From assembly GCA_000004985.1 (NCBI GenBank), contig GG738900.1: a DNA stretch of 64,000 nt, one strand, 5' to 3'. A program made the position numbers and the translations under genes. The DNA comes from Naegleria gruberi (lineage: Eukaryota). Numbering within the stretch: the stretch's first letter is position 1; each line of letters starts with the position of its first letter. Of this stretch, positions 2,755-64,000 are shown in pieces. The notes beneath the pieces are model-generated. The model did not search any database, had not been told where the DNA came from, and was given only the letters and a program-made list of their open reading frames with translations.

Positions 2755-4422
2755 ATGAAGGAACCTTTTGATGCGATTTTGCCAGAGTTGTGGGAAGAAA
2801 TTTATCACTTTCTAGATGATGACAATGGCTTGGAATGTGATTGTAGTAAATTTGAAAGGGTTTGTCTCTCATTCCGAGAGCTTTGTATTCGGATGGAGAA
2901 GAGAAAGATTAGAGAACAATTAGAGTTGGAATCTAAATATTTGAAACATCCTTTATTCTTGTCCTCATCATCTTCACAGGGTGTCAGAGAGGAAGATATT
3001 CAGTTGGTAGAGGAGAGAATGGGCCAGAAATTTCCTTTTCATTTACGAGAATTTATCAAGATTATTGATGGAAGACCTGCCCATTCACAAGATTTGACAA
3101 ATTTACATTATACAAATTCATTGAGACCATTCAAATCGTGGAGTCTTGGTCTTTTTGGAAAAGTAATTATTGGTGGAGTCTTCGATGATTATGAGCCAAC
3201 ACAAATTTACATAAATTTGGAACAGGGTTGGATGGCTATGGATATTTCAACCTATGGAACTACTGATACGATAGATGGAGGATGGAAGGGCTATTTGAAA
3301 ATGACTAGCAACATGTATGAATCCTATAATCCATTCGACATGGAAAAATTGAGTGAGAATTTTTCTGACCTAGTGAAAATCTCCAGATATCATAGCGATA
3401 TTCTTTCGTGCTTACCTGATAAATTCAAGAATGATTTGGAATTGATGAAAAAGCTTGTTGTTGCCAATCCTGAAGCATTTGGATATATGCCTGAGATTAT
3501 ACGTGATGATATTAATTTTATCAGAGAACTAATCATGAGGAGACCACGTATTTACAGAAGTGTGTCTGATCGTTTGAAAAAAGATAAGGAATTATTTGAT
3601 TTGGCATGTTCGTTGGATATTACCAATTTTTATCATGCGCATCACTCTTTAAAAGATAAAGAGCTGGCTTTGAAATATTGCAAACTCTCACGATATCTTA
3701 GCGCAAATGATTTTCCAGACGAGCTAGTTGATAGCGAATTAGTTCATTATTTCAAACATTTTTGGAATGTGCCAGAAGAATTGAGAACACCAGAGCTTGC
3801 CATCCATTTTCTCGAAAATAATTATGATGTTAAACAAGAAATTAAGGGAGATTCCAATCTACAGACTCCACAAGTTCTCGAAGCCATCTTTCGGCTATGT
3901 CCAGCATTTTTATTTAATTTGAAAAAGGAACACCTTTTCACATTTGATTCGAAGGAGGTAGCTTTGAAGCTATTCAATGGACACCAAATTGACGCTTTAA
4001 AGGCCTTTAATGTGCTTCCAGAACACTTGAAAAAAGATATAGATGTAATCAAGGCTGCTATTAAAAAGAGATTTAACATTTTCAAGATTTTGAGTGAGGA
4101 ATTGAAACAAGATAGGGATTTTATATTATACTGCTGGAAGGAATCAGAATCAACAAATTTCATCTTGGATTCAGACTTTTCTCCCTATAACCAAGATTTG
4201 GAGTTTTTGGAAATTGCTTGTAATAACACCCCTGGGTTAGTTTTCTCATTAGACAGAGAATTAGTAACTGAGGACTTTTTAAACTCATTACAACGTTATT
4301 TCTATAAGGGATCCCTTGTTGGTGATTTGCTGAATATGACAAGATTTGAACATTATCAAAATTATAAAGAGAAGGAACGAGATGGGTTCAATGAGAATAT
4401 ATATTACGGAGAAACCGATTAA
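2755..4422 (+). CDS. F-box-like protein with SMI1/KNR4 (SUKH)-like segment and DUF4116-type repeats
   Basis: ORF 2746..4422; the listed start is TTG and the first ATG is at 2755. The N-terminus AILPELWEEIYHFLD…CSKFERVCLSFRELC fits an F-box. GQKFPFHLREFIKIIDG resembles SMI1/KNR4. The C-terminal half has repeated …DKELFDLA / …DKELALKY units typical of DUF4116. Domain calls are from memory of family motifs. Confidence 0.55.
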   Translation: MKEPFDAILPELWEEIYHFLDDDNGLECDCSKFERVCLSFRELCIRMEKRKIREQLELESKYLKHPLFLSSSSSQGVREEDIQLVEERMGQKFPFHLREFIKIIDGRPAHSQDLTNLHYTNSLRPFKSWSLGLFGKVIIGGVFDDYEPTQIYINLEQGWMAMDISTYGTTDTIDGGWKGYLKMTSNMYESYNPFDMEKLSENFSDLVKISRYHSDILSCLPDKFKNDLELMKKLVVANPEAFGYMPEIIRDDINFIRELIMRRPRIYRSVSDRLKKDKELFDLACSLDITNFYHAHHSLKDKELALKYCKLSRYLSANDFPDELVDSELVHYFKHFWNVPEELRTPELAIHFLENNYDVKQEIKGDSNLQTPQVLEAIFRLCPAFLFNLKKEHLFTFDSKEVALKLFNGHQIDALKAFNVLPEHLKKDIDVIKAAIKKRFNIFKILSEELKQDRDFILYCWKESESTNFILDSDFSPYNQDLEFLEIACNNTPGLVFSLDRELVTEDFLNSLQRYFYKGSLVGDLLNMTRFEHYQNYKEKERDGFNENIYYGETD

Positions 4423-5761: not shown

Positions 5762-7441
5762 TTACAATAGCAAACATGTGTTGGATTTGTTTGTTGGGGT
5801 ATTAGATTTTGTCAATATTTTGTCAATTTCTTTTGAACTGGAACTGGAATCTGAAACAACAAGCTTTACAATCTTGTAATCTCTATTTTCAAATTTGAGA
5901 AATTTCTGCACAGCAAGTTTTGTAAAATTATTGCCAGTAATGGAAAGTTGAATTTCTGTTGTGAATTTTGATTTATACTTTGCAGCAGTTGAGATAAATT
6001 CTGAAATTGCATAATCACCAATTTCACAATTATTTGCCAGTAATTCTGTTAATTGTTTCAACAATGGAAAATGAGAAAATCCATCACCAATTGGATTGTC
6101 TGAAATATGCAAAATTTTCACATGTGAAGAAAGTTGGCAAAACTCAATGACCGCTTGGGCATTGATATGATTCGCACAAATAGAGAGCCGATCCAAGGAT
6201 TCACAAGCAGAGAGGTATTTCAACCCGTTTCTAATATTATTACCATTCAAATTGAGAATTCTTAATTTACGTAAAGTTCCATAATTTTTCAAACCTTCCT
6301 CTCCAATTAAATTATACGAAAGAATTAACTGTTCAATATTGATATTAGATGATAGATAATTAGCACCAATATTGCCAATATTGTTACCATTCAAATCCAA
6401 GTATGTTAGATTGATGAGCTTGTTGAAATCCATTAAGAAACTATCACCAATTGAATTATTCGAAAGATTCAAGTATTTCAAAGTTGTAATTGAGCTCAAA
6501 TAACATCCACCATCGAAAATATCATTATCACTCAAAATTAAACTTGTCAGATTTTTCAAATTCCCCAGCCGATCCAACTCTCCTTTTATATTATTATGTC
6601 TAACAGACAAATATTCCAATTTTGGTAAATGTACATCAATTTCCTCAATTGAGCGACCATGTACACCATGTAATGTTAATCTCTTCAATGCACCAATTTT
6701 GAAGAGTTCCTTCAATCCCTGTTCAATCTCCACAGCACCACATTCCAATTCAATCAAAGATTCCAAATTTCCAAATAATTCCAAAACTGAATTTTCAATT
6801 TTTGTTTTTGAAGGGACAAGTCTTAAACTCTTCAAAGTTTTAGAAAATTTGCTATTCAATATTGAAATCCATGAATCAAAACTGAGGCCACCAATTACCA
6901 ATCTTTCCAATGGCCAATCAACATTAAAATTCAATTCACCTCGATAATCTCTAAAGGAAATGGTGAATGATTTGATTTTTGATTGACAGCATTTCATAAA
7001 TTCAACCACCTGAGTATATTCTAAACATTGTAGGTCAACAATTTCTAAAGTTTTCATATTAGAAAAGTAACTAATCAAAGATTTTTCAGAAAAATCTGCT
7101 AATATCAATTCTTTCAAGTTGGTCAATCTAGAAATAAATTGACTTTCTATTTCTAAATAATTAGGAGAAAGCTTTCTCTTGATTACATGTGGAATGTAGA
7201 ATAAACTCGTTATTTTATCTAGCTCTTCGGAATGATCATTTAATATTAATTCTAAACCTTTCGAATCTCCTGTATATTTGATCGGAAAGTGAAATGTTTT
7301 AATTGACTTGTAATTTAAATTCCAATATTTGCAAACTAATCTTGCCGTGTTCAATACCCATTTATATTCGAAATATGGAAGAATTTGATGAAAAATAACT
7401 TCGTTGGGAAGATGTGAAAGGCAAATAGTTTGGTCCTGCAT
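5762..7441 (-). CDS. F-box / leucine-rich-repeat protein (paralog-like neighbour of 4431..5702)
   Basis: ORF 5762..7441 with ATG at 7441. F-box-like N-terminus (LPNEVIFHQILPYFEYKWVLNTARLVCKYWN) then many LRRs (LNLSNNSIGD…LDLNGNNIGN…LILSYNLIGEEG…LNLNGNNI…). Confidence 0.7.
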   Translation of the reverse strand: MQDQTICLSHLPNEVIFHQILPYFEYKWVLNTARLVCKYWNLNYKSIKTFHFPIKYTGDSKGLELILNDHSEELDKITSLFYIPHVIKRKLSPNYLEIESQFISRLTNLKELILADFSEKSLISYFSNMKTLEIVDLQCLEYTQVVEFMKCCQSKIKSFTISFRDYRGELNFNVDWPLERLVIGGLSFDSWISILNSKFSKTLKSLRLVPSKTKIENSVLELFGNLESLIELECGAVEIEQGLKELFKIGALKRLTLHGVHGRSIEEIDVHLPKLEYLSVRHNNIKGELDRLGNLKNLTSLILSDNDIFDGGCYLSSITTLKYLNLSNNSIGDSFLMDFNKLINLTYLDLNGNNIGNIGANYLSSNINIEQLILSYNLIGEEGLKNYGTLRKLRILNLNGNNIRNGLKYLSACESLDRLSICANHINAQAVIEFCQLSSHVKILHISDNPIGDGFSHFPLLKQLTELLANNCEIGDYAISEFISTAAKYKSKFTTEIQLSITGNNFTKLAVQKFLKFENRDYKIVKLVVSDSSSSSKEIDKILTKSNTPTNKSNTCLLL

Positions 7442-8000: not shown

Positions 8001-8074
8001 GCAGCGATAGATCAGTTGGTTAGATCGTAAGCCTAACACGCTTAAGGTCGCGGGTTCAAGCCCCGCTCGCTGTA
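8001..8074 (+). tRNA. tRNA-Val (anticodon AAC)
   Basis: GCAGCGA TA GATC AGTTGGTTA GATC G TAAGC CTAACAC GCTTA AGGTC GCGGG TTCAAGC CCCGC TCGCTGT A folds as a cloverleaf. It has a 7-bp acceptor stem (G1·U72 wobble), a 4-bp D stem, a 5-bp anticodon stem, the loop C-U33-AAC-A37-C and a GTTCAAGCC T-loop. It is followed by TTTT at 8077..8080. There is no intron and no encoded CCA. Confidence 0.85.
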
Positions 8075-56063: not shown

Positions 56064-58237
56064 GTGACCATGCACACATTCGTTTCCTTCTTGGTTTTGT
56101 TTCTGTTGCTTGTTATTCATCAACATGTGCAAGCCAGTTATTTAGATCTAGTTGTTTCGTCTCCTTTACTTTCGAATATTAAATCAAATGACGAAATTGT
56201 TGGTGTGAAAACATTTCTCACACTCTTTGCCATCAAGAATGAAAAGAGCAAACTGGCGAATTATCTGACAGAACTTTCTAATAATTCTTCTTTCACATCT
56301 AATTTTGCTCATGATTCGAATAGAAAATTATTAATGGAATGGCTCAAGACAAATTACATTTCAATTGGTGTAATGTCAAACCAAGTAAATTATTTAACTT
56401 CCACATTTTCACAATTCAACGTTTCCATCTATGAAGGTACAACAGTTTCGAATAATTCTCCACTGACATCTAATCATATATTTTAAAATATTTCCATCTT
56501 TCGATTCATGTCAGAAGCGAAATTACTTGGAGAAATACGATGCTGTCTTGTTAGATCCGTATGCATTTGCGTTCTTTGTGAGGTTTTACAGAGATTCGTC
56601 TAGTTTAGGTTCTTCAATGATGCAAAGTAAGAATTTTGAACCAATTCCATTGATTCCATACGAAGTGTACACTAGGAGAATGATGGAAGCAAATCCATCA
56701 GAACCAATGCAGGAATTGTTTGGTTATCAAAAATTATTGACATGTGAAAATCAACCAGATGTGTCAGATGCTCAATATTTTAGATTGCTGACAGGATACT
56801 CTAATTATTCATCCCTATATGTTGCAATTATTGAAAGAATTACTGGAAAATCATCATTATTAGCTAATTACACACTCATCAATTCGAATATTCCAGCAAT
56901 ACTTTCGTACTTTGGATAATCCGAAACTAATGGATTTTCTTCATCTTCTCTGGAAACTGTTTTACTCTCATCATCATGCTACATGTGCAAAACTTCCACA
57001 TGCGCAGGAGAAAACTTTGATCCAACCTTAGATTTTTGGATAATCCCTCAATTCGTCATTATTTTCGGCTACTTTATACTATTGTTCTCTTTTGGATTAT
57101 TCAAAAAACCATCCATGAGAAGAAGAATTGCCCTTCCCTACTGCCCAATTCTCATTCTAACCATCATGGTCATGTTCACATCTCTCTCAAGAATTTGTGT
57201 TTGCATATTTTACAATATTTCAACTTTTGTAATGATTTGGTGGGTCTTTATTTATTCAGCCACAGTGATTAGATTCTATTTCTTGAGAAATTTATATTCC
57301 CTGATTACTAGATTCCCTACTCGTGAGAAATTGATGAAAATTCTGGCATCTGAAAAGAGTGGTTTCGTTCTGACAGTTGTCTTGACATTTTTATTGGCAT
57401 TGACATTCAATTCGGCTGGAATTTACTTCTTTTTTTTAGAGAATAAGTCCACTATTGATATTTACAGAGCTGCATGGATTGTTGGTTTTATTATTTTGGG
57501 TGGATTGTTAGGTTTTCGTTGCAGTTTTGTGGGATATGATAATCCATGGAAAAACTATTCGAAAGTTTGGACTGAAACGATTCTTCTTTTTCGATGATCC
57601 ATTGTATGTTAGAGTAGACATGTTACTTTTACTCTTTCCCATTGTTATTTGCATTCTAGTTGCTGTTGGAACTGCCTCGCTCGACGTTCAACAAAAAGAA
57701 TATCAAAATGTTGGTGGAATTTTCAACACAATTTTGTGTTTCGTATTTTTGACAATGAATGGAGGAGGTGTAGTGCTGATTGAAATATACAAAAGAATTA
57801 GGTATGCAAAATCTCAAAAGACCAATTCAGCAGATGATTTGGAAAATATTTTGAAAAACGAAGATTTGTTCAATTTATTTAGAGAATATTCTGAAAAGGA
57901 GTTTAGTTTGGAGAATATTGAATTCTATTCAGTCATGTTGAAATTGAAAGTGCAGAAAGTGGTGAGTGAGAAAGAGTTGGATGAAATTGATGATACTTTC
58001 ATTAAGAATTATTCGAAATATGAAGTGAACTTACCTTCAAGTTGTAAACGAGAATTTTACAAACTCAAAGAACAAGCACAAGAGAAAACACACCAAGTTG
58101 AATACTCTGCCTTGTGGCAAGTTTTTGGAAATGATTTGGTGTTGAACATGATGGATACCTTCAGAAGATTGCAAGAAACTTCAAACTATAGTCAATGGGA
58201 ATCCGTTTCTAAATATCAGAAACACATTCATCCTTAA
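56064..58237 (+). CDS. Receptor-like protein: signal peptide + ectodomain + 7 TM helices + C-terminal RGS domain (7TM-RGS), reading frame broken into 4 ORFs
   Basis: ORF 56064..56486 has a signal peptide MTMHTFVSFLVLFLLLVIHQHVQA. ORF 56527..56919 continues the ectodomain. ORF 56983..57597 has 5 TM helices. ORF 57527..58237 has 2 more TM helices and an RGS domain (…EDLFNLFREYSEKEFSLENIEFYSVMLKLK…). A 130-nt intron (GTAAAT at 56385 to CAG at 56514) joins pieces 1 and 2 in frame. Pieces 2 and 3 share a frame but are separated by a single TAA (56917..56919). Pieces 3 and 4 differ by +1 frame between TM5 and TM6. No canonical AT-rich intron explains either break. Confidence 0.55.
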
Positions 58238-58312
58238 ATTAACTTGTATAAATTAATATTTAATTGTAATATTCGTTTGACTCATATATATATGTACAAA
58301 ATTTCATATCCA

Positions 58313-58651
58313 CTAAGCTAAATAACTTGCTTCTGCTTCGTTTTCACACGGAGTACTTTCATTTGCAGATTCTTTACAGTCACAAGCAACTTGACAACCA
58401 TTTTCATCTACCTTGTATCCGTGTGGACATGCTACAAGACAATTGTATACTCTACATGGTGCTGGATTGCAATCACAAGCTATTTGGCAACCGAATCGAT
58501 CAACCTTGTATCCATATCTACAAGGAATGAGGCAGTAAATATTTCTACACGAGCTTGTTCTATGATTTGGTGGTTTGATTGGAAAGGCAGATATCTGATG
58601 AAACCAAACAGAAAGAATGCACAGTATGAGGAGGGTTTGAAAGATTTTCAT
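58313..58651 (-). CDS. Small secreted Cys-rich protein with two antistasin-like repeats
   Basis: ORF with ATG at 58651 and signal peptide MKIFQTLLILCILSVWFHQISA. Two repeats, CLIPCRYGYKVDRFGCQIACDC and CLVACPHGYKVDENGCQVACDC, fit the antistasin-type pattern C-x3-C-x2-G-x3-D-x2-GC-x3-C-x-C. The C-terminus is acidic. Confidence 0.5.
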   Translation of the reverse strand: MKIFQTLLILCILSVWFHQISAFPIKPPNHRTSSCRNIYCLIPCRYGYKVDRFGCQIACDCNPAPCRVYNCLVACPHGYKVDENGCQVACDCKESANESTPCENEAEASYLA

Positions 58652-58764
58652 TTTGTTTAGTGCTGTGGAGAAACAGTTGAGTATTATTTGTTACAACAAG
58701 TGTATTTCCTAGTTTGGTGCCTTTCTTGGAGTGTCAACAGTACATATTTAGAAATGGGATAGAA

Positions 58765-59739
58765 TTAGTGTTGGGGAGAAGAAATAACGTCAGAAAATCC
58801 TCGTTGTTCCTTCATTTGCCTCATATGTTTAAAGAATTTGAGATTAGATTTCTTCATTATTATACATCTTTCCAAATCAAAGTTCTTAATCATTTGGTGC
58901 AGGTTGGTGAACTGCAATCTTTCAGCTGCCTGTTCAGAATTCAACATAATTCTCTGTCTGACAATTCCACTATATTCTGAAACCATTATTACATCATCAC
59001 TGAATAGACAATCAATCTTTTTACAAGCTCCACATTCCAATAGAATCCTTGCAATTTGACATTTTCCTTTCAAACAAGCAATGAATAATGGTGTTCGATT
59101 CTGTTAGAATTCAAGAGTTAAAAAGAATTAATAATATGAATGACAACTTACTCCTGGTGAACCAAATCCATCAACATTGCATCTCAATCTATACAATAAC
59201 CAATAAACTAAATCAACTTGTCCCTTTGCAACAGCAACATGTAAAGCAGAAACATTTCCATTTGGTGTATTCGTATTGATAAACTCTTTAATCTTGAGTG
59301 TCATCCAATCTCTCATTGTCTGATAACAACTATTACTCTGAACTTCTAGCAAACATTTGTAATTATTGACAAGTAAATGTGGAAGTGGATGAAAATCACC
59401 ATACTGATTCTCTATCATGGTTTGTAAATGCTCTTGAATCCATTTAGAAACAGTCTGATAAGAAGCACATTGATCATTCTTTGGAAATTCAATCCAGTAC
59501 AATCTATTGAGGTATTGCTCCAATAATTGAGTTAAACTTTTGAAAAGATTTGAATCGAATCTAATCATGGAAACTTCATCCATTGAATGTTGTTGTTGTT
59601 CTGCTTGCTGTTCCTTACTCTCAATTGCTTCTTCTTCCTCTTTCAAATCTTGAATAATGGAAATGAAATGTTTGTTGTATTCCCTCAGCAAACTTGATCG
59701 AGTTGTGATGGTATTTGGATGAATGAGTTGTAGGGCCAT
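58765..59739 (-). CDS. Ankyrin-repeat protein, 2 exons
   Basis: Model complement(join(58765..59100,59152..59739)) with a 51-nt intron (GTAAGT…CTAACAG, phase 0) lying inside an ankyrin repeat. Across the junction it reads …TPNGNVSALHVAVAKGQVDLVYWLLYRLRCNVDGFGSPG | NRTPLFIACLKGKCQIARILLECGA…. ATG is at 59739. Confidence 0.65.
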
Positions 59740-60233
59740 TTCGTGTATTTGTTCTTCTTTTTCTTTTTTGAAAATTTATGTAACATCATCTTCCAATGAG
59801 AGATTTTAAATTCAACCACCGAATATTCGTGATGATTTGTAATTAAATTAGAAAAAAAGGAAATTGGATATTGGAGAGTTATCTATTGAACATGTTTGCG
59901 TAGAGTGATTGATGATGGAGATTGGTTGTGTACGTATTAATTGTTGTTCTTTTGATGCTCGTGTGGTTTTTTCGCATTCCTTGGCTTTGGTTCATCCGAA
60001 GGAAATGATGAAGGAATTTGCTTCCATTTTGTTGTTGTTTTATTTTTTTTTATGGTTGAAGTTAAATTGTTTAACGGTTTGTGGTGGCGGGAAAATTTTT
60101 GATGTTGCTTGATGTAGATTCGAACAATATTTCCAATAGGACACAAAAAGCAACCTTAGTGTTTCCTTTCCTAGACTTTCTAGATTGAATGTCGAATCAC
60201 AAAGAAAAGTTAAACAGCAAGTAAATCAAAAAA

Positions 60234-61655
60234 ATGGGCCAAAGTGGATCAAGAAAAGGTTTGTGTTTATTATTAGAAACTAAACTGATCATTCAATCGA
60301 AAAACAGCAACAAAATCAACCAACTCCGGTTATAGACCATCACGTTCTGCTCCTTCACTTCTAGGAAGACAAGAAGTACTTTTAACTTTTGATACAGAAT
60401 TTCATTCCTTCTCTCAAGATAGTTTAGAACAAGTTTCTCAACTTGATCCGAAAGATGCTGCCACTCGAATTTTTAGATTTAAACATTTAACAGACAAAAT
60501 GACGATAAAATCAGTGAGTTCCGGAAAGAGCTTTGCTGCTCTCCTTGCAAATGATGGAAGGTAAGTGACAAATTTACAAAAAACTTTGAATTTTCGAATA
60601 ACAAAAGATTATTTGTTTGTGGAAAGTGTCCATTCCCAACCACTGGACCAGAAACAACCTCCATAACCGATACAACCGATGAAAACCTTACACGTATTTC
60701 AATTGAACTTTCTAATAAGCAAGTTGTGGATAAATTTTCGAATATTGCTTGTGGAATGTATTTCATGATGGCTATGAGTGATGATCGTTCAAATATCTTC
60801 TCTGCAGGGCAGAATGAATGTGGTCAGAGAGCAATTGGTCGAGGAGGTTCTCTCAATTTTAAAGAATGTATTTTTGAGACCACTGAAATCAAAACCAAAT
60901 TACTGAGTGGATTGGAAAAGATTTCATGTGGATATCAACATGCTATTGCCTATTCGAAAGATGGAAATCTGTATGGAACTGGATGTTCCTTTCAAAATCA
61001 ATTGGGAACAATAGATAGTGGAATTTGTTACGAGTTTAGGAAAATATCGAGACCAAAAACTGATAATCAAATAATTGATGTACAAGCTGGATTTTTCTTT
61101 AGTGTTTGTTTGGATTCTGAAGGAATGGTCTATGTGACAGGAATAAGAGCTCACTCAAATATGATTGATGCTCAAGAATGGACGAAAATGAATACCTTCA
61201 TCAATCATCCAGTTTCTTCCATGTGGATTTCATGTTCCAACGCTTTCTTCCTAACTCAAGATGGACAAGTCTATCACAATTTGAATCTAACCTCAGAGAT
61301 GGCCAATGATGAAAATCTCATTACTCTTCCAATACCTTCAGTCAAATCTATTTATGGTAAAGAATCTTACATGGCAGTCGATCAGTGGAATACAATCCAT
61401 GTGTCAGCTTCGAATGGTTCTCAAGGAGTTTCAAACACATCGAAAAATTGGTTTGAACACGAAGGTATGCGAAGACTCATCGGAAGCAAGGATGAATTGC
61501 AAATTCTTGATGCCTTTACTTTTTGTATTTTCATCAAATCATCCAATGAGGGAGTATTGAAGAATAACTTGTGTACTATTCTCAAAAAACAATTCAATAG
61601 TGATTTGCATGAAAAGTCGTACTTGTATGATATCCGATTTACATCCATGCATTAA
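60234..61655 (+). CDS. RCC1-like repeat protein with N-terminal myristoylation motif (MGQSGS), 3 exons; paralog of 26560..27915
   Basis: Model join(60234..60258,60308..60560,60608..61655), total 1326 nt. The introns are 49 nt (GTTTGT…AACAG) and 47 nt (GTAAGT…CAAAAG), both phase-checked. Exon 1 encodes MGQSGSRK. The RCC1-like repeats (…DGRLFVCGK…CGYQHAIAYSKDGNLYGTGCSFQNQLG…VQAGFFFSVCLDSEGMVYVTG…) are collinear with the 26.5-kb paralog. Confidence 0.65.
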
Positions 61656-61861
61656 ATTATCGATAATAATAATTAAAATTTCATCCTTTTTAAAATAATC
61701 AAATAATATTATTATTTAAGGGGTACCTCTGGTCGTTACGACTGTTAGGAAACGCCAAAACTTTTAAATTTTTAATGTTTCTAAAAATAAAAAAAAATAT
61801 CACAACTTCCTAGGTGAATCATCATCATCATGGGCATCATCAATAAATTATTAATTTTAAT

Positions 61862-63694
61862 TCATTTTCCACCATCATCTCCTTCTTGTTCTTGTGTTAG
61901 AGTGACACAACATTTGCACATCGGATCTCCATTACATTCTGCACATACCTCAACAGTACAATAGGGACACTTTTCTAAGTGAGTAAAGTAACTTCCGCAA
62001 TTAGAACAACATTTCGTCTTCCTTGAGGTGGGAATAATGGAACCAACATAATGTGTTTTCTTCTTCTTGATGGGTATTGTGGATTGGGTAGTGTGTTGGT
62101 TTTGTTTGTTGTTACAGTTAATACATCTGCAAGCTGTAGAACACACCATCTTACTCTTCTTGCAAGCACAAGTATTTGAATCACACCCCAAACTGCAATC
62201 ACACGATAGTCCATAAGTGGCCTCGCTCTGGGGCATAGTTTGAGATAATTCCTTGAATTTCCTCTTGTTGTTAGCTTTTTGCTTTTTGGCTTCTTCAGTA
62301 TGATGATGTTTCAATACTTTAGATCTTTTTTCATTCAACTTATTCATATTGCTCTTCCATATTTCTTCTTCTGGAATATCCAATAAATCAAATAACCTTA
62401 TAATCCAAGTTTTACCTGCATTCTTATCCAAAACTGCTTGTTGAACACGAGTTCGGAAATATCTTGTCCCTTTGATATTCTTTGAGACATATTTAATTCT
62501 CATTCTGTGAAATGATTCACACGGATTTGATGAGTAATGGTGAAAAATTGCTTTTCCTTTCAGAACCAAGTTGTTTAACTTTTCTTTTAAATACTTAATC
62601 ACAAATGAATGGCGTTTTTCAGATAGCCATAGCTTATTGGGAGTTTTATGGTTTGGATCTTTAAACGGGCATCCCTGTGAGCAACCATCATGTTTGTTGC
62701 ATAAATGATTTGGAATGTTCTTTAACCAAGATTGTAATTCATCAAGAGAAGTTGCTTTAGAAATAAATTTGCTAACATATGCATTAATTCTAGGAGCCAA
62801 TCTCTTCAATAATGCTTTGTCACCACGACGAAACAAACCTGATGGTTTCATTAATGATTTGTAGAGGTTTTTTCTAATATGATTAATATCCAAATAGGAT
62901 GTTACATTCGGATATTGATCAACAATATGTTTCAATGTACTACTATCCTCATCATGAATGACACATGAGATATTAATGTTATTGCTCTTCATATCTGAAC
63001 AAAACTGTTTCACTGACTCTCCTTCCATTGTCTTTGAACTTCCATGAAACATCCCAGTTTTGCAATTAATAATATCACTTGAATCTCTACAAGAACGACA
63101 CTTCTCAATCACTTTGTAATAAACAATTTTAGAAGTAGTGGCATCAATAACAACAAGAGCACCATTTGATGATTCTCGCTTATGTCCCCATCCAAAGTCT
63201 ATCATTATTATTAATCCATTTTGTGATTTCTTTGCAGCTTCTTGCAAATCATCAGCTACCTGCTTTACGGAGAGTATTTCTATGGCAATAGAAAATGTTT
63301 CTAGGATATTGTAGAATGCAGATAATGAAAATGGTTTGATATTATTCAATAAAAGAAGTTGGCTGTATGTATCATAATTATGTCCAAGTATTAAACATGA
63401 TAAAACAAATCGGAAGGCTGTAAAATTGGGCATATTAGAAACTCCACCACTGTCCCATTTGATTTCCTTATGACAATTACTACATGTTATTGTTGCAATT
63501 AGTTGTCCACCAATAGTATGATGTGATGAAATTGTCAGTGATGATTTTGAGCAATTTGAGCAAGCAGCGTTCTCCAAAAGTAAGCTCAGATTGTTTGTAT
63601 TACATAAAAAAGCTTTTTTAAATTTAATTTTTTTTTTAGATTTTGATGACTTACAACAATCATTTGGTTGGAATTTTGCACTACTTCTCAACAC
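61862..63694 (-). CDS. Transposase-like protein: N-terminal C2C2-type zinc finger, RNase-H-like core candidate, C-terminal CXC (tesmin/TSO1-like) Cys cluster
   Basis: ORF 61862..63694 (610 aa) starts at GTG, and the true start is undetermined. The N-terminus is CSNCSKSS…(22 aa)…CSNCHKEIKW. The middle …LIIMIDFGWGHKRESSNGALVVIDATTSKIVYYKV… resembles a DDE/RNase-H-fold strand pattern. The C-terminus CDCSLGCDSNTCACKKSKMVCSTACRCINC fits a CXC domain, with further C-x2-C clusters at the very C-terminus. Such CXC clusters occur in some eukaryotic DNA transposases (KDZ/Plavaka-type) but also in host proteins. The family call is tentative. No terminal inverted repeats are visible before the window ends at 64000. 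Confidence 0.35.
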   Translation of the reverse strand: MLRSSAKFQPNDCCKSSKSKKKIKFKKAFLCNTNNLSLLLENAACSNCSKSSLTISSHHTIGGQLIATITCSNCHKEIKWDSGGVSNMPNFTAFRFVLSCLILGHNYDTYSQLLLLNNIKPFSLSAFYNILETFSIAIEILSVKQVADDLQEAAKKSQNGLIIMIDFGWGHKRESSNGALVVIDATTSKIVYYKVIEKCRSCRDSSDIINCKTGMFHGSSKTMEGESVKQFCSDMKSNNINISCVIHDEDSSTLKHIVDQYPNVTSYLDINHIRKNLYKSLMKPSGLFRRGDKALLKRLAPRINAYVSKFISKATSLDELQSWLKNIPNHLCNKHDGCSQGCPFKDPNHKTPNKLWLSEKRHSFVIKYLKEKLNNLVLKGKAIFHHYSSNPCESFHRMRIKYVSKNIKGTRYFRTRVQQAVLDKNAGKTWIIRLFDLLDIPEEEIWKSNMNKLNEKRSKVLKHHHTEEAKKQKANNKRKFKELSQTMPQSEATYGLSCDCSLGCDSNTCACKKSKMVCSTACRCINCNNKQNQHTTQSTIPIKKKKTHYVGSIIPTSRKTKCCSNCGSYFTHLEKCPYCTVEVCAECNGDPMCKCCVTLTQEQEGDDGGK

Positions 63695-64000
63695 AGTTTC
63701 ATTATTAATTATCTAATTAATCCACATACCAACAGGATATCAATTACATACGTTACAACATATCTCATAAGTAATATGTATTTACAATTATTTAACTTAC
63801 ATCTATCTGTCTTGCGTTCATTCTCTTCATCATGTTTTGACTATTGACACAGAAGTTATTAGAAAAACGAAGGTTGAACGAGAAACAATTTTGATAGTAC
63901 AAAGAAGCATCACTCTTACTAATTACCATTCTCTCGAAGTTTTGTTTATTGGAATGTCTTTCTAAACAGCAATCACAAAACTGAGACAGGTCTACTTTGC

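Follow-up and report, generated by a model that had tools for sequence, protein, structure and literature searches.

At the right-hand edge of a 64,000-nucleotide (nt) stretch of the Naegleria gruberi genome (contig GG738900.1 of assembly GCA_000004985.1; the whole stretch is called the window here), a minus-strand open reading frame (ORF) for a 610-amino-acid (aa) protein lies beside a short GC-rich segment in an otherwise AT-rich spacer. An earlier sequence-only reading of this locus had proposed that the protein resembles the transposases of some eukaryotic DNA transposons, that the segment could be an element terminus, and that the element might be active or domesticated. Do the gene and the segment belong to one transposon, and if so, of which superfamily? 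We confirmed the resemblance to transposases and conclude, with a probability of about 0.87, that positions 61720..64000 hold at least the 3' two-thirds of a protein-coding DNA transposon of the Kolobok superfamily, a name that the sequence-only reading did not supply.

The GC-rich segment occupies the 37 nt at 61720..61756, within a 206-nt spacer that separates the transposase ORF (61862..63694, minus strand) from a convergent RCC1/WD40_RLD-like gene (60726..61655, plus strand). Its GC content is 57%, compared with 16% for the rest of the spacer; across the 64 kb, a GC content this high occurs in only 0.5% of 37-nt windows, and its exact string is single-copy in the window. The sequence-only reading had quoted this string correctly and had recognized it as GC-rich in an AT-rich spacer, but had placed it at 61718..61755. 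Immediately next to it stands TTAA (61716..61719), presumably one copy of a 4-bp target-site duplication, so that the boundary reads TTAA|GGGG. The outermost 14 nt of the segment (61720..61733; GGGGTACCTCTGGT on the plus strand and ...ACCAGAGGTACCCC-3' in gene orientation) form the 3' end in gene orientation, a candidate arm of a terminal inverted repeat (TIR), and the remainder is a variable subterminal stretch.

Two contigs from other sources place the boundary. The neighbouring gene for a 112-aa secreted Cys-rich protein (58313..58651, minus strand; weak antistasin-like match) had a single match, an ENA metagenome contig of 4335 bp that we call L001. L001 is 98.7% identical to window positions 57518..61707, which amount to 4.2 kb of flank, and carries both the 112-aa gene and the RCC1-like gene at that nucleotide identity. 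It is collinear with the window through the RCC1-like gene and the spacer as far as ...TTATTTAA. Past the TTAA it continues with unrelated DNA (TCCAATCAATAG...), where the window has GGGGTACC from 61720, placing the break exactly at 61719/61720. The junction holds a single TTAA, the flank beyond it begins TCCAATCAATAGAAACC, and the unaligned end of L001 matched nothing anywhere in the 64-kb window. This arrangement points to a closely related, 98.7%-identical strain that does not carry the element at this position.

The second contig, L002 (Logan, 979 bp), carries P0002, which at 58% identity is the closest protein relative of the window transposase. It aligns to window positions 63646..63383 and 62409..61715 with 71-77% nucleotide identity. 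The L002 copy is decayed: an internal deletion, with its junction at a shared CTTGGA microhomology, has removed the whole catalytic core, and an in-frame stop codon interrupts the N-terminal part. Its similarity to the window nevertheless runs on from the stop codon across the 142-nt 3' noncoding region (61720..61861, minus strand) and ends at an identical ACCAGAGGTACCCC|TTAA, beyond which the DNA is unrelated to the window flank. Within that region, a 20-nt subterminal block (ATTAAAAATTTAAAAGTTTT in gene orientation; 61757..61776, minus strand) is identical in both copies, while the coding sequence is only 71-77% identical. Since the two independent boundaries, from L001 and from L002, coincide to the nucleotide at TTAA|GGGG, the proposal that this segment is an element terminus was borne out: the GC-rich island is a conserved element end set in AT-rich intergenic DNA.

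A more distant, CXC-bearing relative provided a complete pair of ends. Contig L009, which carries the protein P0004, has a perfect 12-nt TIR (GGAGCAATTTTA) whose arms lie on either side of the gene and each adjoin a TTAA (312-327 and 4242-4257). TTAA therefore adjoins all four termini seen: one in the window, one on L002 and two on L009. L010 has a candidate end, ...CGCCACC|TTAA; TIRs sought in L003 and L010 were not found. A metagenome scan for GTNGTAACNACCAGAGGTACCCC gave 0 matches, neither the protein nor the terminal 18-mer found anything among viral contigs, and a protein-guided metagenome scan recovered five distant loci, none with usable ends.

We then asked what kind of transposase the element encodes. 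The sequence-only reading had advised a HMMER/Pfam search. An exhaustive HMMER search yielded 403 relatives at an E value of ≤1e-3 and 82 at ≤1e-10, while Pfam was blank on the window protein itself; NCBIfam gave nothing useful, and two word-index homologue searches recovered almost solely the N. gruberi protein. In an alignment of 60 relatives, D166, W169, E224, D248, D250, D269, H272, H330, H335, C338, E393 and K405 were invariant or nearly so, and the window ORF is intact and keeps all of the conserved transposase residues. An AlphaFold model built from a single sequence was unusable (predicted local distance difference test score [pLDDT] of 38). With the 60-relative alignment, the model reached a pLDDT of 80.6 and a predicted template modelling score of 0.70, with pLDDT values mostly above 90 for residues 90-480. 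The best match of this model among solved structures was ISCth4 (PDB 6xg8), an IS256/Mutator-family transposase with 12% identity. Because homologues, a confident model and the fold search agree, the assignment of an RNase-H-like DDE fold is sound, and the D...D strand pattern noticed earlier corresponds to a D166/D248/E393 core. The catalytic domain, which includes D250 and an alpha-helical insertion, is encoded by 62480..63217 on the minus strand.

Kolobok elements (Kapitonov & Jurka) are recognized by 4-bp TTAA duplications, 5'-RR..YY-3' termini (R, purine; Y, pyrimidine) and a C/DxxH motif; in their transposases the stretch from that motif to the catalytic E holds a zinc finger whose third Cys is highly conserved and which MuDR, P and hAT lack (PMC9587614). 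The window protein has both protein signatures. Its C/DxxH motif is D269-I-N-H272, and among the 60 aligned relatives 56 have D at column 269, the other 4 have C, and column 272 is H in 60/60. The zinc finger before E393 consists of H330 (60/60), H335 (56/60), C338 (59/60) and C342. The visible terminus is likewise of the RR..YY type, GGGG on the plus strand being ...CCCC-3' in gene orientation; L002 is alike, and the L009 termini read GGAG...CTCC.

For a direct comparison we used 12 published Kolobok transposase cores (Data S5 of PMC9587614) together with 12 shuffled controls. The profile of the window family matched all 12 cores, with E values from 1e-17 to 1e-54. With Z set to 1e6, the window protein on its own matched 5 of the 12 at E values of 1e-4 or lower, the best being 7e-8. 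None of the 12 shuffled controls was matched. We assign the element to Kolobok because of these direct profile matches, its TTAA and GG...CC ends and its C/DxxH and zinc-finger signatures. In its DDE core, C/DxxH motif, zinc finger before E, TTAA, RR..YY ends and sequence similarity, it is like the rest of the superfamily.

Within the superfamily, the element has features of its own. Naegleria is among the known Kolobok hosts, Kolobok-1_NaeGru and Kolobok-2_NaeGru having come from N. gruberi, and some Kolobok lineages carry accessory nucleases, a DEDDh exonuclease marking KolobokD (PMC9587614). The window protein is similar to Kolobok-1_NaeGru only distantly, and this score of 36 bits implies a family distinct from the two NaeGru Koloboks in the published alignment. 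A DEDDh (RNase_T) exonuclease is carried by 9 of the 60 relatives, including P0004 and P0005, as is typical of KolobokD, whereas the window element differs from other Koloboks in having no accessory nuclease or helicase. After the core, the window transposase adds to the described Kolobok architecture a tesmin-type CXC zinc cluster and a Cys-rich tail. A second zinc finger, after the first D, has the order C-C-C-H in the window protein rather than the CCHC described for Kolobok.

Several results weigh against assigning the locus to a Kolobok transposon. The lack of a Pfam match for the window protein is one, and the Pfam family name of its relatives, 'Mutator-like', is another. With the far end beyond 64000, the window displays one terminus and one TTAA, neither a TIR pair nor a duplication. 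Within the 64 kb there is no inverted or second copy of the terminal motif and no second copy of the transposase gene, and since one annotated N. gruberi protein is of this kind, the copy number may be one. The site lacking the element is known from a single metagenome contig that extends only about 119 nt past the junction, and the last ~40 nt of that contig are palindromic and could be an assembly artefact. Current activity of the element is only inferred. The single annotated protein, the want of a second copy in the window, the position of the far end outside it and the intact ORF with all conserved residues would all suit a single-copy host gene domesticated from a transposase, in which case the GC-rich segment would be mere 3' untranslated or intergenic sequence. 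We regard this as very unlikely, given that the sequence from 61720 onward is missing from a 98.7%-identical strain with the break exactly at TTAA|GGGG, that a decayed copy with an internal deletion shares the terminal 14 nt and adjoins different DNA, and that conservation of the noncoding 3' region stops at the terminus. On the question of an active or a domesticated element, the absence from a related strain and the decayed copy elsewhere thus favour a true transposon. The segment might instead have nothing to do with transposition and be an independent small RNA, hairpin or terminator: its GC content stands out sharply from a spacer of 16% GC, and it has a convergent gene on either side and contains a 5+5 near-palindrome (GTCGTTACGAC, 61732..61742) to which the sequence-only reading had drawn attention. 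That palindrome proved irrelevant, being not conserved in L002, where the terminal 14 nt are, and conferring no unusual folding (z scores of -0.44 and -0.55 in two foldings). The segment also had no Rfam match at E ≤ 1 and no tRNA, and it is absent from the spacer of the related strain. Of the alternatives considered, we find this one the least probable.

The remaining candidates are other transposon superfamilies. We had initially filed the locus as a Mutator-like element (MULE) of the MuDR superfamily, on the strength of the Pfam name and the ISCth4 match. PF20700 ('Mutator-like transposase') is carried by 45 of the 60 aligned relatives; P0004, the closest PF20700-positive one, matches the query at an E value of 1.7e-41 and PF20700 at 5e-26. 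A MuDR-type element, MuDRF, has moreover been reported in N. gruberi (PMC3164196). We dropped the filing in view of the TTAA and RR-YY ends and the direct Kolobok comparison. MULEs make target-site duplications of 8-11 bp (PMC6446971), which the TTAA at all four termini does not fit, and the internal zinc finger is one that MuDR transposases lack. In addition, neither the window protein nor the 60 relatives (at E ≤ 0.01) matched the Pfam families MULE or Transposase_mut, some relatives carry the KolobokD exonuclease, and ISCth4, the best structural match, is only 12% identical; the TTAA target and the extra finger set the window element apart from it and from eukaryotic MULEs. A MULE is accordingly highly improbable, more so than domestication. 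It appears that, in this branch at least, PF20700 takes in Kolobok transposases and that its name points to the wrong superfamily. piggyBac elements share the TTAA target, and their ends read CCC...GGG. We rejected piggyBac since the window element is of the GGGG...CCCC form and piggyBac ends are not 5'-RR..YY-3' (PMC9587614); the window element has neither a piggyBac-type transposase nor piggyBac termini.

The sequence-only reading had also described three Cys-rich regions outside the catalytic core of this Kolobok transposase. The N-terminal C2C2 finger is a zinc ribbon (C45-x2-C48...C71-x2-C74; 63473..63562, minus strand). Alignment shows it conserved in P0004, P0008 and P0009, and it is conserved in the L002 copy too; the AlphaFold model has three beta strands in this region, at residues 53-81. 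At the other end, the Cys pairs noted at the extreme C terminus belong to a tail with 10 Cys in residues 562-596 (61907..62011, minus strand), whose pattern is conserved in P0002. This tail, where AlphaFold confidence is low, is probably another zinc-binding module.

The third region is a single CXC zinc-cluster domain, encoded by 62108..62215 on the minus strand, with Y494, nine Cys (C498, C500, C504, C509, C511, C518, C522, C524 and C527) and N529, all invariant in 11 clade members. The spacing quoted previously, CxCx3Cx4CxCx6Cx3CxCx2C, is exact and is the same as that of the CXC domains of tesmin/TSO1/LIN54 and MSL2 (PF03638, PF16682). The tesmin/TSO1 type holds at the family level: the clade CXC profile matched the LIN54 CXC at an E value of 1e-4 and EZH2 weakly, and, of the 11 clade segments, 9 had a PF03638 match with an E value of 1 or lower, the best being 1.9e-6. 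The window segment alone scored 18 bits against PF03638 (E = 0.0036), below the gathering cut-off of 23.5 bits. Nine or 10 aligned Cys occupy this region, directly after the transposase core, in 10 of the 60 relatives, the closest ones included.

LIN54 has a tandem pair of CXC units, whose YCxC tyrosines (Y536 and Y610) enter the minor groove and read TT/AA steps (PMC4974476). The window protein has one unit, and at the position of the LIN54 tyrosine it has T508, mostly R or K in the clade. Because the reading tyrosine is absent, the TTYRAA specificity of LIN54 cannot be transferred to the window protein, and we rejected as unsupported the idea that its CXC domain reads TTAA or TTTAAA in the LIN54 manner. 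A limited literature search found no link between Kolobok and CXC or tesmin domains, and PMC9587614 does not mention one; the domain, which a clade of relatives has in common, appears to be undescribed for Kolobok. As a tentative and rather doubtful extension, a Kolobok clade comprising at least 10 of the 60 relatives, KolobokD-like ones included, may have recruited a single tesmin/LIN54-type CXC module that binds a GTACCAGAG-like terminal or subterminal motif, the N. gruberi copy being active and strain-polymorphic. Such a motif makes up the extreme end of the Naegleria element and recurs as about 68 tandem copies within the element of a relative.

The ORF list was made with bacterial start codons, and the 610-aa ORF begins at a GTG. 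In the public annotation, a 523-aa 'predicted protein [Naegleria gruberi]' agrees with the ORF at 100% identity and starts at M88 of the ORF, the first in-frame ATG. An upstream exon and intron are likely because there is no ATG before M88, the zinc ribbon that precedes M88 is conserved, and the frame stays open to a GTAAGT. The true start is probably supplied by a coding exon at 63801..64000 (candidate ATGs at 63929, 63833 and 63830), joined through a putative 88-nt phase 0 intron (GTAAGT...TTAG, 63713..63800) whose donor site is at 63800 and whose AG acceptor, at 63713, restores the frame. The last exon would then be 61862..63712, that is, the 610-aa ORF plus six codons upstream to the putative splice acceptor, with the stop codon at 61862..61864; all of these features are on the minus strand. 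The upstream exon shares a motif with the N terminus of P0008, without significant similarity. Since its frame is open to the window edge, the protein would be longer than 610 aa and the gene would run off the window. The public 523-aa model omits the conserved zinc ribbon, and probably also the upstream exon and intron, and looks truncated.

We can picture the life of the element as follows. The transposase would bind the terminal 14-mer and the subterminal block at 61757..61776, perhaps through its zinc ribbon, its CXC unit or both, and would excise the element, which would then insert at TTAA and duplicate these four bases, as in other Koloboks. The window copy would have landed 64 nt downstream of the stop codon of the RCC1-like gene. 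Its intact ORF, together with its absence from the site in a closely related strain, suggests recent mobility. If the Kolobok assignment is true, the DNA beyond 64000 should contain an inverted GGGGTACCTCTGG, then TTAA, and then the L001 flank beginning TCCAATCAATAGAAACC.

The window element is an ordinary cut-and-paste mobile element of a known superfamily, with the CXC-bearing clade and the strain polymorphism as mildly novel features, and the finding leaves the understanding of transposons in general unchanged. What had been a 'predicted protein' of N. gruberi can now be annotated as part of a Kolobok transposon whose end and target site are placed to the nucleotide. CXC domains are better known from LIN54, tesmin, MSL2 and EZH2, and their fusion to a transposase throughout a clade offers a simple system for studying binding by a single unit. 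The presence/absence difference between nearly identical strains hints at a recently mobile element and, potentially, a genetic tool for Naegleria.

A number of smaller features came to light on these contigs. In the flank just outside the element (61701-61719), an ATT-rich run is longer by ATTAT in the window (AATAATATTATTATTTAA) than in L001 (AATAATTATTTAA); either variation of a simple repeat or a footprint of repair could account for this. The palindrome of L001 lies at L001:1-41 and has arms of 17+17 nt (GAAACTTTAATTTTTTT ... AAAAAAATTAAAGTTTC); it may be an assembler artefact, and the junction itself is untouched by it. On L002, positions 929-979 resemble the 3' end of a tRNA gene with a T-run, about 21 nt from the element end (reverse complement, ...GGGTTCGAGCCCCACGTGGGGCG). 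ARAGORN called no tRNA on L002, because the gene is only partly on the contig, and as this neighbour is one case we make no claim of tRNA targeting. The window itself has a tRNA-Val(AAC) gene at 8001..8074.

Repeats of two kinds were found on the contigs of relatives. Between the stop codon and the 3' TIR of L009 (3483-4167), a 10-nt unit (GTACCAGAGT / GTACCAGTAG) is repeated in tandem about 68 times; it is very similar to the ACCAGAGGTACC with which the window element and L002 end. The array was misread by the gene caller as a spurious 230-aa ORF, and it may represent amplified putative transposase-binding sites. The contig of a distant relative, L005, is rich in copies, both direct and inverted, of a ~19-nt unit (GTCGCCCATTATCGGCGAC-like) between positions 680 and 6145 (680-739, 1473-1514, 2951-2995, 3522-3566 and 6105-6145), which may form another type of terminal or subterminal repeat.

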